In this document: piece after piece, positions 26,072-30,960 of the stretch
Layout: every line of letters begins with the position of its first letter
How positions within the stretch are numbered: position 1 is the first letter of the stretch
Virus record (IMG/VR): IMGVR_UViG_3300009160_000004
Coordinates: 1 to 60,251 of that record
Direction: 5' to 3' (one strand)
From: a virus
Taxonomy: Duplodnaviria; Caudoviricetes
Length of the DNA stretch: 60,251 nt
Notes under the pieces: generated by a model
Seen by the model: the letters and a program-made list of their open reading frames with translations, nothing else
Databases searched by the model: none
Told to the model about the DNA's origin: nothing
Translations under genes and position numbers: made by a program

Positions 26072-26689
26072 TCACCCCATGTGCTTTCTAGTTTTCGCCT
26101 TAGTCTTTCCATCGCGGCCTCCAGCATCCGGATGCGTTTTCGCAATGTATCGTTCTCTCTCCTCAACCTCTCCTCCTCCTCGGACGAAGAGACTTGTGTC
26201 TCCATCTACGAACTCCAGGAACTCTTGTGGGTACAGGTACTTTTCCAATTCATCTGCGTGGCGAAGATGTTCCTTGGGGGCGACGAGCATCCCCATGTCA
26301 TGGCCACGGGTATTGTCTTTGACAGTCTTCTCTTCCCATGAATCATCCCGGTCTAGCGGCGTGATCCACACCCACTTGCCTGTCACTGAAGACAGGAACA
26401 CATAGGCAAAGGGATGGATGAACTCCCTGCCCAGGCCGCGCGTGTCATCAACAAACACGGTCGGGTACGGGAAATCTTCCGGAGACGTAAACTTCAGACT
26501 CCGTTCTTTAATCTCCACGGACAGGAGGACTGCTGCATCAGGAGTGCCACAGTGGTCAGCGACCTTGCTGTGGTTCGTGAGCAGGAGCTTCTTGCCGTGA
26601 GCCGCCGACCGGCCGGAGACGCGCTGGGCATCCACCCAGGCGCGCTCCGCACGGTGACCGGAATTAAGAGCCGCTCGGAATTGCCGCAT
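26072..26689 (-). CDS. PD-(D/E)xK nuclease-like protein
   Basis: GHRAE, TPD, VEIK, FPYPTVFVD. Confidence 0.65.
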   Translation of the reverse strand: MRQFRAALNSGHRAERAWVDAQRVSGRSAAHGKKLLLTNHSKVADHCGTPDAAVLLSVEIKERSLKFTSPEDFPYPTVFVDDTRGLGREFIHPFAYVFLSSVTGKWVWITPLDRDDSWEEKTVKDNTRGHDMGMLVAPKEHLRHADELEKYLYPQEFLEFVDGDTSLFVRGGGEVEERERYIAKTHPDAGGRDGKTKAKTRKHMG

Positions 26690-27191
26690 AGTTCCAACCA
26701 GTCCATTGGTATGATCGAATGTCAACCCGCTCTGGCGAGACGTTCGCTAGGCGGTCCTCACGCTGCCTGATCTCCTTGGCCATCGCGAGAATCTCTTCGG
26801 GACTTGGGTCACCGGGCTGGTAACCGTCGTCCACAAACTCCATCCAGTCGGGGATAAACTCTTCCTTGCGAAGAGCGTCGGCTGTTCGCCGGACGGAGCG
26901 GGCCCAGTTGAGGGGCTCGCCAAACCAATCCGCGATGTCCTCGTCGGTAACGTCAGGCACCCGCATGGCGACCAGAGCCAGACGCTCCCGAGACGGCACC
27001 TTCCCGCAGTGCCGCAGGATTCGGAGGACGCCAACAGTTGCGCTCTTTCCCAAGCCCAGGCTCTTGCCCACCATCATCGGCGGCTCGCGGTTTACTATCA
27101 CCCGGTGATACAACTGCCCGGCGAAAAGGAGCGGACAGTAAACTGCAAAGTCTTCGCCAAAAATTGGGGCGTACATGTCCCTCTTTCTCAT
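26664..27191 (-). CDS. Putative HTH DNA-binding protein
   Basis: AGGAGG SD; VGKSLGL and EDIADWFG helices; DPSPEEI motif. Confidence 0.6.
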   Translation of the reverse strand: MRKRDMYAPIFGEDFAVYCPLLFAGQLYHRVIVNREPPMMVGKSLGLGKSATVGVLRILRHCGKVPSRERLALVAMRVPDVTDEDIADWFGEPLNWARSVRRTADALRKEEFIPDWMEFVDDGYQPGDPSPEEILAMAKEIRQREDRLANVSPERVDIRSYQWTGWNYAAIPSGS

Positions 27192-27282
27192 TCTTCTCCT
27201 CCTTGGTAAACGTCTCTGGGAAAACATGCGGGATGTCAAACACCTCCCGCACCACAGAATCAACTAAGTCTTGCTCGCTCAC
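26953..27282 (-). CDS. Possible overlapping hypothetical protein
   Basis: GGAGAG SD and protein-like N-terminus MSEQDLVDSVVREVF, but heavy overlap with the next gene. Confidence 0.3.
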   Translation of the reverse strand: MSEQDLVDSVVREVFDIPHVFPETFTKEEKNEKEGHVRPNFWRRLCSLLSAPFRRAVVSPGDSKPRAADDGGQEPGLGKERNCWRPPNPAALREGAVSGASGSGRHAGA

Positions 27283-28291
27283 GGCGTTCTCTCTCCTTAC
27301 GAAACAGGTTCTTTACCCAGCCTTCCCGCAGGTCACGGCAGGCCCAGTGGATGTAGCCATTCGTTAGCTCCGACATCTTCATGCCGGCGTACTTGCCCTT
27401 CAGAGGGTTGAAGTAAGTGCCGACGCACCGCGAACCGGCGCCAATGTCAAACTCTCGGCGGCGAATACTTCCAGACGCCTGCCCCCTAGTGGCGGCGCGG
27501 CGGGCTTCGATCTCCATCGCCAACTTCCGCTTGGCCTCTTCCTCCGCCCGCAGGGCAGCAAGCTCCGCCTCCGTCAACGGGGACTTGGCCTCGGCGGCAC
27601 GGCGCTTCACTTCCTTCACAACCTCTGGCCCTGCCTGGACGAACATGTCCACGGCCGTGACGAGGCGGTGATCCAGGCTGGCATCGGTGCAGTCAACAAT
27701 TTTGAAGTGCGGCTTGGAACTCTCGGCTATGCGTTGCCGGCGGAGGTCGGCGGTTGAGCCTTGGAAATCGACTACTCCCGGCAAGGGACGAGTAGCGCGG
27801 CCAACGCATTGGAGCCAGAACGACCGTGACCGCGTCGGCCTGCCCAGGATCAACGTGGCTGTGGGTGGATAGTCAAAGCCCACGGCGACCACCTGACAGT
27901 TGACGAGTACTGGCACCTCGCGTGACTTAAACCGGCGGAGCGCCTCCCTGCGTTCATCCTCGTCCTGCTTGCCATGCACATAAACTGACGGAATTCCGTA
28001 GTTATTGTTGAGGTAATGACACACCCCAGCAGCCGCAGCCACGCCAGCGGTGAACACCACAGTCTGGCCTTCCATCTCTTCCTTGGTGATCAGGCAGATT
28101 CGCTGAAGGTTTGCTTCTTTGACCATCTCATCAGCCAGTGCAGATTGTTTGAAGTCGTCGCCTACGATTGCTATTCCGCTGAGATCCAGGGAGGCAACCT
28201 TGGAGATGCGACAGACGGGAGGGACGGACCATCCGTTGTCAATTGCCCATCGGAGGTCGTAGTTACACAAGGACTCGTCGTAGAACTGCAC
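27260..28291 (-). CDS. SF2 helicase, C-terminal half (motifs IV-VI)
   Basis: TVVF, VHG, LVNCQVVAVGFDYP, QCVGRATR. Confidence 0.88.
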   Translation of the reverse strand: MQFYDESLCNYDLRWAIDNGWSVPPVCRISKVASLDLSGIAIVGDDFKQSALADEMVKEANLQRICLITKEEMEGQTVVFTAGVAAAAGVCHYLNNNYGIPSVYVHGKQDEDERREALRRFKSREVPVLVNCQVVAVGFDYPPTATLILGRPTRSRSFWLQCVGRATRPLPGVVDFQGSTADLRRQRIAESSKPHFKIVDCTDASLDHRLVTAVDMFVQAGPEVVKEVKRRAAEAKSPLTEAELAALRAEEEAKRKLAMEIEARRAATRGQASGSIRRREFDIGAGSRCVGTYFNPLKGKYAGMKMSELTNGYIHWACRDLREGWVKNLFRKERERRERARLS

Positions 28292-28776
28292 AGTAAACCC
28301 CTCCCATCCATGCGAAATGGAGTCGCCGTAAACCCAGCCACCATCGCCCCGTCGTGTTGAAAGTAACGCAACATCTCAACCACCGGCTCACTGCACATCA
28401 GGTGAGCCTCGTCCACAATCACCAACTGAAAATCACGGAACCGTTTGTATCGCGGCTCCCCGCCCCGCCGGCTGAGTAACGTCTGCTTCGATGCGACAAT
28501 CACCTTGCTGGGGTAATCCTCTTCAGCGTGGAAGTTAGCCATCTCCACATCAGGATCAGACTCTGTGATGTCCCGCACCTTCTCAATCGCCTGCCAGACA
28601 AGCTCACGCATCGGGCAGATGATCAACGTCCGACCCAGAATCCGTGCAGCCAATGTGACAAAGATCACTGTCTTGCCGGCACCCGTGAACAGGCCGTTGA
28701 GCGTGGAGGTAACACCACGATCCATGGCCTGTAGGTTGGCGGTCACGATCTCTTCTTGGTAGTCGCGTAGTTCCAT
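28171..28776 (-). CDS. SF2 helicase, N-terminal half (Q motif, I-III)
   Basis: LRDYQ, TGAGKT, DEAH, TATP; coding frame changes near 28295. Confidence 0.9.
   Translation of the reverse strand: MELRDYQEEIVTANLQAMDRGVTSTLNGLFTGAGKTVIFVTLAARILGRTLIICPMRELVWQAIEKVRDITESDPDVEMANFHAEEDYPSKVIVASKQTLLSRRGGEPRYKRFRDFQLVIVDEAHLMCSEPVVEMLRYFQHDGAMVAGFTATPFRMDGRGLLCSSTTSPCVTTTSDGQLTTDGPSLPSVASPRLPPWISAE
28294..28300 (-). other. Candidate -1 frameshift slippery heptamer G GGT TTA
   Basis: In-phase X XXY YYZ; a -1 slip joins the two helicase halves. Confidence 0.5.
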
Positions 28777-28825
28777 AAGAAAAAACCCGGGGGCGAGGAG
28801 GGACGGGGGTTGCCTCGCCCCCGGG
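28777..28825 (-). terminator. Rho-independent terminator after ssb
   Basis: 13-bp CCCGGGGGCGAGG stem plus TTTTTTCTT. Confidence 0.88.
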
Positions 28826-28831
28826 GAGCCA

Positions 28832-29161
28832 TCAGAAGGAGGCGAATTCCTCCTGGGGCTCTGAGCGCTTCCCTGCGCCCAGTAGCGTGAGCGAGCGAAC
28901 GGCCAAAACCATCTTTGACTTCTTCTGTCCGTCCTTCTCCCAGGACTGCTGATCCAGTTCGCCAGTCACGCAGACCTGACAGCCCTTAATCAGGTACTCC
29001 AGAACGCCACCGATGCGCCAGTGATCGCAGTCCAAGAACATGACCTTGTCCTTGCGGCCATTGACCGCGATGGAGTAACGACCCACCTCGGCCTCACCGA
29101 CCATCTTGGACTCAGCATCCTTAGTGATCCGCCCAGTAAACGTGCAGACATTCGTATCCAT
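28832..29161 (-). CDS. ssb: Single-stranded DNA-binding protein
   Basis: GRITKDAE, KG.QV.V.G.L...WEKDGQK, acidic tail ending in Phe. Confidence 0.92.
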   Translation of the reverse strand: MDTNVCTFTGRITKDAESKMVGEAEVGRYSIAVNGRKDKVMFLDCDHWRIGGVLEYLIKGCQVCVTGELDQQSWEKDGQKKSKMVLAVRSLTLLGAGKRSEPQEEFASF

Positions 29162-29163
29162 GG

Positions 29164-29799
29164 TTACGCCTCAACTTTCTGAAAGGTGTCATCAAACTTC
29201 TTCTGGATCCGTTCCAGAACCGCCTTCGGGCATGCCTTCTCCAGAACCCTCTGCTTCACCAACGAGACGACCTTCTTGGCCTCGTCCACGCTCTTGGCTT
29301 CCGCAAGTGCCTTGGTCGCCTTGCTCTCAATCTCCATCCCCTTGGTGACAACATCCGCCTCCGACGAGCGGGCCGTGTGCTGCACGGAGTTGCCGTCGTC
29401 GTCAGCCTCGCCGGAGAAACCTCCAGTGAGCGCCATGAGGAGCGTCCGCTTGCCATATGTCATCGCCGCACCGAAGCCCTGCATGTCGCCCTTCGGATTG
29501 ACAAGCGGAGCTACTCCAGAGATGTACTGCCCGCTGCTATGTCGGAGCGTGCCGACCAGCACCCACTGCGAGCCTGCGAGACCAGGACGAAAATCGGGAA
29601 GCGCAATCCCGTTCTTCGTCAGCGGGCCACGCAGGGACTCGCAGCATTGAGCAAACGAACTGAACTTGCTCCTGAAGTGCGGGTTCGCACTATCCAGAGC
29701 AACGGCCTGATACTCCGATTGAGCCTTGGCCAAAGCCTTCGTCAGTTCAGCCGTCTCCGGCGAACTACTTGGCCCAAGAATGAACTGGTTATCAATCAT
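29164..29799 (-). CDS. erf: ERF-family single-strand annealing protein
   Basis: NPHFRSK, QGFGAAMTYGKR, DDDGN. Confidence 0.9.
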   Translation of the reverse strand: MIDNQFILGPSSSPETAELTKALAKAQSEYQAVALDSANPHFRSKFSSFAQCCESLRGPLTKNGIALPDFRPGLAGSQWVLVGTLRHSSGQYISGVAPLVNPKGDMQGFGAAMTYGKRTLLMALTGGFSGEADDDGNSVQHTARSSEADVVTKGMEIESKATKALAEAKSVDEAKKVVSLVKQRVLEKACPKAVLERIQKKFDDTFQKVEA

Positions 29800-30644
29800 A
29801 GAAGCACCTCCTCCTTCTTCTGTGCCCACGGCGGAATCACTAACTCCGTGATCTCGCCAAACGTCGCGGGCGTGTAGATACCCGTCTCCCGTCGCAACCG
29901 AACTTCCTCCATGACTCGTTCCATCCGCCGGCCGGCTTCCTCAACCACTTCCTGTGGGAGGTAGAAGACTTGGCAGTCGAACGGCGGGACGCTGTGGACA
30001 AATACGAACGGCATCCGGAAGTGATCCATGCCCATCGCCATCGCGGCACGGACATACAACCACTCCTGTTCCGCATAGCCGTAGTCAAAGACGCTGCGGT
30101 ACAGCGCGTCCCACGGTGCGGAGGTGGACTTCAAATCCCACCAGTAGTCCTCTGCACAACCGTCCGGCCGCACCTTCACGCGGTGGCCGTTGAGGTCAAA
30201 GAAGACAGAGACCTGAGTCTCAACCGTCTCCTTCACGCACTTGCGTGCTGCGGGGTTCGCAAGCAGGGACTCCGCCATCGTCCGGAGTTTGAATGCGTAC
30301 TCCTCGTTGCACGGGATGCGACCGCTCGCGATGCACTCCGCCTCAAACTCCTTGTAAGCCTTGGTGCCACGCCGGCCGTCAACGCCCAGCACATCAACCG
30401 GGGCAATGGCCAGGAGCTTGTCCATCTCCCTGCCGTCGCAAATCTCCATGACGAGCGTGTCGAAGTCGGAGCCCAGGCTGGTGGCGCTGTTCCCCTCAAA
30501 GATTCTGTGGCCAAGGTCCAGCCACCTTTGAGCGAATCCACCACCCTTCAGTACCGCGACAAAAAAAGACCGCGAATCGAAATCGTTCTGTGCGAAGTAG
30601 TCGGCGTTCGCCATGCCGACAACCTTCCTTGGCAACGTGTCCAT
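29796..30644 (-). CDS. RecE-like exonuclease (PD-(D/E)xK, DUF3799-like)
   Basis: ETQVSVF, KVRPD, DLKST, YGYAEQ; adjacent to erf. Confidence 0.85.
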   Translation of the reverse strand: MDTLPRKVVGMANADYFAQNDFDSRSFFVAVLKGGGFAQRWLDLGHRIFEGNSATSLGSDFDTLVMEICDGREMDKLLAIAPVDVLGVDGRRGTKAYKEFEAECIASGRIPCNEEYAFKLRTMAESLLANPAARKCVKETVETQVSVFFDLNGHRVKVRPDGCAEDYWWDLKSTSAPWDALYRSVFDYGYAEQEWLYVRAAMAMGMDHFRMPFVFVHSVPPFDCQVFYLPQEVVEEAGRRMERVMEEVRLRRETGIYTPATFGEITELVIPPWAQKKEEVLL

Positions 30645-30654
30645 ACGTTCACTC

Positions 30655-30960
30655 CTATTTCTTAGACCGAATCCTTTGCAAACGGCGGTAGGCGGCGATG
30701 AAATCGCCAAGCTGTCCCAAGGCCAGCAGGGTCAGTGCGAAGCCGGACCAGCGAAGAAAAATGAAGGTGGTCAGCGCGGCCAGATAGGCGGCGCTAAGAA
30801 TGGGGTAGTCACGGGAGAAAACCCCTGCCAGCCATGCGTAGACAACTGAGCTACGCGCGCGATTGGGGGGGGTTGAATCCACTTTGTTGATGGGTATCTT
30901 CCCCGCCGTTAGGGCTACACCATGAGCCTCCTGCAACTTGTCGAACTGTACTGCTGTCAT
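30655..30960 (-). CDS. Possible membrane protein spanning the candidate attP
   Basis: Hydrophobic C-terminal half; stop overlaps the AGGAG SD of the exonuclease gene; start uncertain. Confidence 0.3.
   Translation of the reverse strand: MTAVQFDKLQEAHGVALTAGKIPINKVDSTPPNRARSSVVYAWLAGVFSRDYPILSAAYLAALTTFIFLRWSGFALTLLALGQLGDFIAAYRRLQRIRSKK
30836..30860 (-). other. Candidate attP core carrying tRNA nucleotides 1-18
   Basis: GCGCGCGTAGCTCAGTTG; inverted arms around a 7-bp spacer; 61 nt from the integrase start. Confidence 0.7.

Follow-up and report, generated by a model that had tools for sequence, protein, structure and literature searches.

A RadD-like SF2 helicase of a freshwater phage that is probably made as two polypeptides from overlapping reading frames

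Introduction

Superfamily 2 (SF2) helicases build the ATP site and the nucleic-acid path jointly from two RecA-like domains and are normally single chains. In the phage genome analyzed here (IMG/VR record IMGVR_UViG_3300009160_000004; Duplodnaviria, Caudoviricetes), a RadD-like SF2 DNA helicase of the phrog_16 family is divided between two overlapping open reading frames (ORFs), named ORF1 and ORF2. Does this layout yield one protein by recoding, two proteins by separate translation, or is it the product of an error or of gene decay? The window, i.e. the whole stretch of DNA that was analyzed, covers a complete 60,251-bp virus record that carries direct terminal repeats and comes from fresh water; all features described below lie on its minus strand unless stated otherwise. 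Comparative analysis of the locus suggests, with a probability that we put at roughly 85%, that the phage makes the helicase as two separate polypeptides, with ORF2 internally initiated. As a large clade of related phages has the split layout in common, neither a programmed frameshift nor a sequencing error is a probable explanation of it.

Organization of ORF1 and ORF2

ORF1 (28776..28171; 201 amino acids, aa) matched Pfam ResIII/DEAD (ResIII, E 1.8e-21). Its residues 1-160 hold helicase motifs I, II and III (GAGKT, DEAH and TAT), the Walker A, DExH and motif III elements that an SF2 RadD-like helicase carries in RecA-like domain 1. Homology stops at residue 160, at the end of ...TATPFRMDGRG, and residues 161-201 form an out-of-frame read-on tail across the start of ORF2. 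ORF2 (28291..27260; 343 aa; GTG start) matched Pfam Helicase_C (PF00271, E 1.3e-15) and carries the motif VI arginines in a Q..GR..R pattern; its C-terminal 176 aa showed no match in Pfam. The ORF2 frame is -1 relative to ORF1 and is open upstream as far as 28375. The two ORFs overlap by 121 nucleotides (nt) (28171..28291), with the ORF1 stop 118 nt beyond the ORF2 start, and purifying selection in the overlap was found in the ORF2 frame only.

The two ORFs occupy consecutive parts of the phrog_16 'DNA helicase' profile (positions 271-424 for ORF1 and 428-654 for ORF2), and alignment with fused relatives narrowed the frame change to about 17 nt between ...FRMDG and FYDE.... The first-pass annotation, made from the sequence alone, had reported helicase motifs in two frames with a break after TATPFRMDGRG, and the ORF coordinates and Pfam matches agree with it on both counts. 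It had also placed the split between the two RecA domains. The split of the frames is real, but the break falls just after motif III and, by the structure models, one strand and one helix short of the end of the first RecA-like domain. In these models ORF2 begins with the strand and helix that close RecA-like domain 1 and continues through RecA-like domain 2, which bears motif VI, into a C-terminal region of about 170 aa.

Comparison of split and fused relatives

A protein search with ORF2 gave 264 matches, and the best 120 of the 264 were classified: 45 are proteins of about 500 aa with both DEAD/ResIII and Helicase_C, and 75 hold Helicase_C only. The 119 loci fetched, together with the window, made 120 sequences. 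Nine were dropped, four with one half missing (L112, L113, L115 and L119) and five with the N-terminal half cut at a contig end (L014, L074, L076, L102 and L111), which left 111 sequences, 82 of them distinct. Analysis of these 82 revealed 21 fused and 61 split forms with an identical split point; identity to the fused relatives was 55-79%. The first-pass annotation had asked for a check of homologues for the same break, and its presence in 61 of 82 distinct relatives is a recurrence beyond chance.

Comparison of the junctions among the split forms revealed six geometries. The long -1 overlap seen in the window, with the ORF1 stop 49-148 nt beyond the ORF2 start, is predominant (42 distinct sequences, window included), followed by the ATGA junction (eight) and the short +1 overlap (five). 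An ORF of 155 aa stands between the halves, with ATGA and TGATG overlaps, in four distinct sequences; a TGATG junction occurs in one, and an in-frame stop followed by a Shine-Dalgarno (SD) sequence and ATG also in one. The position of the ORF1 stop relative to the ORF2 start ranges from -466 to +148 nt among the relatives, and the length of the ORF1 tail varies. Given six split junction geometries, no one recoding event serves all of them. All split forms (61/61) retain a full-length ORF2 along with motifs I, II, III and VI.

The inserted ORF of 155 aa was located at 2534-3001 of L016 and also appeared in L017, L060 and L081 and in the cut loci L014, L045 and L111. It overlaps the ORF1 stop through ATGA and the ORF2 start through TGATG, and the L016 and L017 copies show conservation. 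Searches with the L016 copy found no Pfam or PHROG family and no homing endonuclease match, and in the ESM Atlas only unnamed clusters and coiled-coil-like leads below 0.9.

The same comparison bears on a rival account of the frame break, namely that an assembly or sequencing indel in a homopolymer run has broken a gene that is truly fused. The break does lie within 17 nt that contain a GGGG run and a TTT run, and the support examined consists of assembled contigs rather than raw reads. Contigs from two runs, which are possibly the source of the record, match the window exactly. A 990-nt contig of run X3, which belongs to a different study, covers 27971-28700 without a difference or a gap, and one from a fourth run (X7; covering 28170-28355) is gap-free and reads ATG where ORF2 starts. 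L001/L047/L080 and L048/L087 show the same layout, and an indel error is hard to reconcile with 61 distinct split relatives that carry proper start signals. The chance of such an error is practically negligible.

Translation start signals of ORF2

Analysis of the junction revealed an SD-like sequence, GGGAGGGG (28298..28305), inside ORF1 and 6 nt ahead of the ORF2 GTG. It is conserved within the window's clade. Within it, GGAGG (28304-28300) stands 8 nt ahead of GTG 28291, as the first-pass annotation had reported. Within the open -1 frame, no possible start codon precedes the GTG (28289..28291). The ORF2 start is ATG instead in L001/L047/L080, and in the contig from run X7 (lake water, different study) a C>T difference at 28291 on the plus strand likewise gives an ATG start.

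Across the 61 split relatives a start codon is always present at the aligned position, ATG in 58 and GTG in three. An SD core (GGAG, GAGG or AGGA within -20..-3) was found in 53/61 split forms vs 5/21 fused forms at the equivalent place, and the mean energy of the duplex with the anti-SD was -8.5 kcal/mol in split and -5.9 kcal/mol in fused forms. A separately initiated gene pair is marked by an upstream ORF that contains, conserved in relatives, the SD and start codon of the downstream gene, and the locus shows both. Four relatives have the weakest SDs, and all four lie at ATGA or TGATG junctions. Reinitiation at such junctions requires no strong SD.

The first-pass annotation had offered, as one of two readings, a translationally coupled helicase of two subunits. 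The two subunits are well supported by the start codon in 61/61, the SD in 53/61, the varied junctions and the purifying selection on both halves. The coupling fared less well, as the window has no ATGA or TGATG stop/start overlap; such overlaps are present in 9/61 split relatives, and strict termination-reinitiation coupling is plausible in these nine only.

Analysis of the predicted helix at the SD

A duplex that hides the SD had also been proposed as a functional signal. The two arms do pair 12/12 in the window, with nine Watson-Crick and three G-U pairs as the first-pass annotation had counted: the 5' arm (28309-28298) holds the SD and the 3' arm (28224-28213) lies over the Val-Pro-Pro-Val codons of ORF2. 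Such a 12-bp helix might gate ORF2, the SD being exposed only while ribosomes on the ORF1 tail melt the helix, so that the synthesis of both subunits would be coupled. Gating of this kind is a sub-mechanism that is compatible with two separate polypeptides. The helix is present in minimum free energy and centroid folds in two contexts, both arms lie within ORF1 (stop 28171), a contiguous 12-bp match occurred in only 39/2000 shuffles, and an SD partner at +68..+73 is predicted likewise in L001, L048 and L087.

In these same three relatives, however, the helix has 10/12 pairs with internal mismatches and zero compensatory changes. The 5' arm is not conserved, and over the 61 split relatives the predicted partner of the SD is not conserved either (mean paired probability 0.62). 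Shuffled flanks hide the G-rich SD nearly equally well, with a mean of 0.86 against the observed 0.94 and with 38% of 300 shuffles at 0.9 or above. The regional folding energy is ordinary (z -0.19 and +0.44), and the 3' arm is fixed by the Val-Pro-Pro-Val codons. The duplex found no covariation support as a functional signal. It is doubtful that the SD-hiding helix goes beyond chance, and gating through it is unlikely; at the level of sequence it stands as an unproven, lineage-specific possibility.

Analysis of the G GGU UUA heptamer

The second reading offered by the first-pass annotation was programmed recoding at G GGU UUA (28300-28294). A -1 frameshift at this heptamer would give a fused helicase of about 500 aa, alone or beside separate initiation of ORF2. 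The heptamer (28294..28300) is in phase with ORF1, as had been stated, and the -1 frame is open from 28375, so that an in-phase X XXY YYZ heptamer with an open -1 frame is indeed present. The predicted frameshift fusion fits the linker length of the fused relatives within one residue, and the heptamer is retained in all four distinct members of the window's clade despite a synonymous divergence (dS) of about 1.

Comparison with the other relatives does not support a frameshift. The in-phase heptamer with an open ORF2 frame was found only in the window, L001, L048 and L087, that is in 4/51 relatives of the -1 type, and is absent from 47/51; a slippery site conserved in homologues with the frame break is thus lacking. 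A stop in the ORF2 frame one codon ahead of the ATG was observed in 17/51 relatives of the -1 type (within 33 nt in 28/51), and in those 17 slipping upstream into the ORF2 frame is therefore impossible. In other relatives, what separates the halves is a +1 frame change, an in-frame stop or an inserted gene.

The surroundings of the heptamer in the window point the same way. The sole hairpin at the right spacing (6 nt downstream) has an energy of -3.9 kcal/mol, weaker than in shuffles (z +1.08), and is lost in L048. Since the duplex of the first-pass annotation takes in the slippery site, it cannot stimulate from downstream. The SD shares bases with the heptamer and does not lie upstream of it; in dnaX a spacing rule is said to hold between the SD and the slippery site. 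Neither a stimulatory structure 5-9 nt downstream nor an SD at a stimulatory distance upstream was found. Conservation of the heptamer within the clade is equally accounted for by constraint on the SD and its spacer, and the heptamer is probably a by-product of these.

G GGU UUA is reportedly the -1 frameshift site of the L-A virus, and the window resembles that site in having an in-phase X XXY YYZ at a -1 ORF overlap. The likeness extends to the sites of bacterial dnaX and of IS3/IS911, treated in a survey in Escherichia coli (PMC4066793). Unlike all these sites, the window is without a conserved heptamer or a stimulatory structure, its SD overlaps the heptamer, and an independent start codon is conserved. 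The part of the survey that was accessible (PMC4066793) gives V_VVA_AAR, H_HHU_UUY and a few others as the efficient classes of heptamers in E. coli, with heterogeneous motifs, to which G GGU UUA belongs, poorer; G GGU UUA falls outside the classes it lists as efficient. The same portion of the source reports only 1.8-3.6x background for the U_UUA tetramer, even with a pseudoknot, and ascribes the signal from G-rich motifs to SD action for initiation in the -1 frame. A literature search on the G GGU UUA heptamer with E. coli frameshifting found no paper.

Programmed recoding was thus not borne out, in view of the clade-limited heptamer, the upstream stops, the weak hairpin and the overlap with the SD. 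A programmed frameshift is very unlikely, and some frameshifting within the window's clade is possible. Transcriptional slippage was considered separately and rejected by reasoning, the runs being only 4 G and 3 T.

Selection and evolution of the split

Both halves of the helicase are under strong purifying selection. Within the window's clade, where dS is about 1, the ratio of nonsynonymous to synonymous substitution rates (dN/dS) lay at 0.05-0.07 in the body of ORF1 and at 0.03-0.09 in ORF2, a range that takes in the overlap as read in the ORF2 frame. In the frame of the ORF1 tail the same overlap gave 1.0-1.7, which marks the 41-codon tail as unselected read-on.

These values bear on whether a frameshift has inactivated the helicase gene and left a pseudogene in decay. 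A frame break within a motor domain is normally inactivating. A dN/dS of 0.03-0.09 in both halves at this divergence is not that of a pseudogene, and neither are the motifs and full lengths retained throughout the split forms or the inheritance of the split state through a clade with members at about 52-55% identity to the window. Decay of the gene is so improbable that it carries only slight weight.

A tree was built from both halves with the junction residues excluded (82 rows, LG+G4, quick search, with Shimodaira-Hasegawa-like approximate likelihood ratio test (SH-aLRT) support). Two clades, each with support 99, were resolved: clade 1 has 60 rows, 59 split and one fused (L053), and clade 2 has 22 rows, 20 fused and two with ATGA splits (L073 and L099). 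L053 is a single fused gene within the split clade and sister to the ATGA form L051; on the tree it is placed as a re-fused gene. Single-base differences at the linker convert fused and ATGA forms into each other. The minimum number of changes on the tree is three between the fused and split states and 11 among seven junction states. From the distribution over the clades and the junction changes on the tree, it is concluded that the split is old and stably inherited, and that the junction itself is labile.

Structure models of the two chains

Complex prediction scored ORF1 with ORF2 at 0.70, and the best of three controls reached 0.00; there was at least 68% contact agreement between runs and a partner predicted local distance difference test (pLDDT) of at least 81. 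A score of 0.70 was reached by 58/80 solved complexes and by 2/110 mismatched pairs, counts that are rough as our own alignments were used. As the halves of a split gene may reach such a score merely by resembling solved single-chain helicases, the score of the modelled complex shows likeness and not binding.

In the predicted complex, ORF2 residues 2-22 contact ORF1 residues 22-33, the strand ahead of motif I, and motif VI (ORF2 residues 156-168) lies opposite motifs II and III (ORF1 residues 124-125 and 148-154). The model of a fused relative, P0032 (mean pLDDT 77), has the motif III strand at 146-151, then a linker of lower confidence, a strand at 173-178 and a helix at 180-185; this strand and helix correspond to ORF2 residues 6-18. 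The usual strand order in P-loop domains of this sort is 5-1-4-3-2. The contacts, the P0032 model and this strand order together suggest that ORF2 donates the last strand of domain 1 and that the two chains would be held by completion of the sheet.

A model for the two-polypeptide helicase

We infer independent initiation in vivo, heterodimer assembly and enzymatic activity of ORF1 with ORF2, as follows. Translation of ORF1 would produce most of RecA-like domain 1, with motifs I-III, before reading on through 41 unselected codons. Ribosomes that bind GGGAGGGG within ORF1 would initiate at GTG 28291, and ORF2 would thus be translated independently, contributing the strand and helix that domain 1 still lacks, RecA-like domain 2 together with its motif VI, and the C-terminal region. 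Both chains may then assemble into an active motor, in which the N-terminal strand of ORF2 would complete the domain 1 sheet beside the strand preceding motif I. Motif VI would then be turned towards the ATP site.

A more far-reaching proposal seems somewhat probable: that this SF2 helicase has long existed as an obligate heterodimer, its ATPase core cut within RecA-like domain 1 and the last sheet strand supplied in trans, and that its fission point is an evolutionary hot spot that has been re-fused, has changed frame and has taken up a gene of 155 aa.

Several points weigh against separate translation of the two halves. As a start codon, GTG is weaker than ATG. The SD of the window is predicted to be paired with a probability of 0.94, which could limit free initiation. 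The four distinct sequences of the window's clade keep the heptamer, and the -1 frame stays open over 84 nt upstream. The interface between ORF1 and ORF2 is drawn wholly from predicted models, and the use of assembled contigs in place of raw reads, mentioned above, counts here as well.

Genomic context of the helicase locus

The helicase comes after three genes on the same strand that encode an exonuclease VIII-like PDDEXK protein (30710..29796), an Erf-like annealing protein (29829..29164) and SSB (29161..28832). This gene order looks like a recombination and replication module. Downstream, an ORF of 199 aa (27263..26664) overlaps the ORF2 stop by 4 nt, and a second ORF of 217 aa (26725..26072) follows; neither matched Pfam or PHROG. 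No tRNA genes were found in the 60,251-bp window.

A long GC-rich stem-loop followed by a U-run occurs at 28780-28829 on the minus strand, between the SSB gene and the ORF1 ATG. A comparable stem-loop, with other stem sequences and usually with CCUCC near the top, precedes the helicase gene in most relatives, fused or split. In the window's clade the ORF1 ATG lies 3 nt after the U-run; ORF1 is without a visible SD, and the SD of ORF2 is strong. A scan for promoter and terminator consensus sequences returned nothing at the ORF1/ORF2 junction, and the stem-loop ahead of ORF1 was not among its entries either.

A blastn search of cultured phages with the locus gave no match. By tblastn only distant helicases were found, with identity of at most 37% among the matches listed. 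Helicase relatives were also observed on contigs of 53 kb, 55 kb and 7 kb (L116, L117 and L118) in metagenome-assembled genomes (MAGs) named Rubrivivax, Pirellulaceae and Phycisphaerales. These may be phage contigs swept into bins, and the MAG names give no reliable host.

Comparison with known systems

RadD, an SF2 DNA repair helicase of E. coli (PDB 6jde, 7r7j, 8h5y and 8h5z), has the helicase motifs and both RecA-like domains in common with the window. Among solved structures it is the nearest by sequence (E 1.1e-23, matched to residues 3-333 of the fused relative P0022), and RadD chains are the top Foldseek matches of the P0032 model (E 1.4e-19, 26% identity). The RadD-like fold was found in the model of fused P0032, the chains of the window having been modelled as a complex only. 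This likeness comes from sequence and fold; RadD is one polypeptide, whereas the helicase of the window is cut just after motif III and has a C-terminal region without a Pfam match. Phage helicases of phrog_16 and fused members of the group (e.g. P0032 / L053) belong to the same family as ORF1 and ORF2 but are single genes. The best-matching cultured phages (of Salinibacter, Mycobacterium and Gordonia) have, among the matches listed, one 'DNA helicase' feature under the match.

The NrdA gene of Aeromonas phage Aeh1 is reportedly split by a homing endonuclease gene, and the window has in common with it an essential phage enzyme held in two adjacent ORFs that need reassembly. Fractured phage genes with split inteins (PMC2677866) share this arrangement. 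As in genes in pieces, another gene stands between the halves in four distinct split relatives of the helicase. Unlike in fractured genes, the ORFs of the window overlap with nothing intervening, so that neither intein halves nor a homing endonuclease gene between them were found. A split intein or fractured gene was tried as an explanation and rejected, as the ORF ends abut the helicase linker directly and leave no room for intein halves.

The known kinds to which the locus can be compared are phage genes in pieces and overlapping gene pairs. No description of a natural split of such a helicase was found, by title or abstract, in the literature searched, subscription journals and supplementary files being outside its reach.

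Significance

For annotation, the locus indicates that a slippery heptamer at an ORF overlap can arise as a by-product of a G-rich SD. Gene callers give about two-thirds of this helicase family as 'Helicase_C only' (75 of the best 120 of 264 matches).

For the helicase family, a natural fission just after motif III appears to have been stably inherited under strong purifying selection. If the two halves are indeed translated separately, two ribosome-binding sites could set the supply of the subunits separately. The fused sister forms differ at the junction only and thus offer a ready-made system for asking to what extent the motor needs covalent linkage. The split and fused pair also suits the questions of how the fragments meet and whether separate translation tunes the amounts of the subunits.

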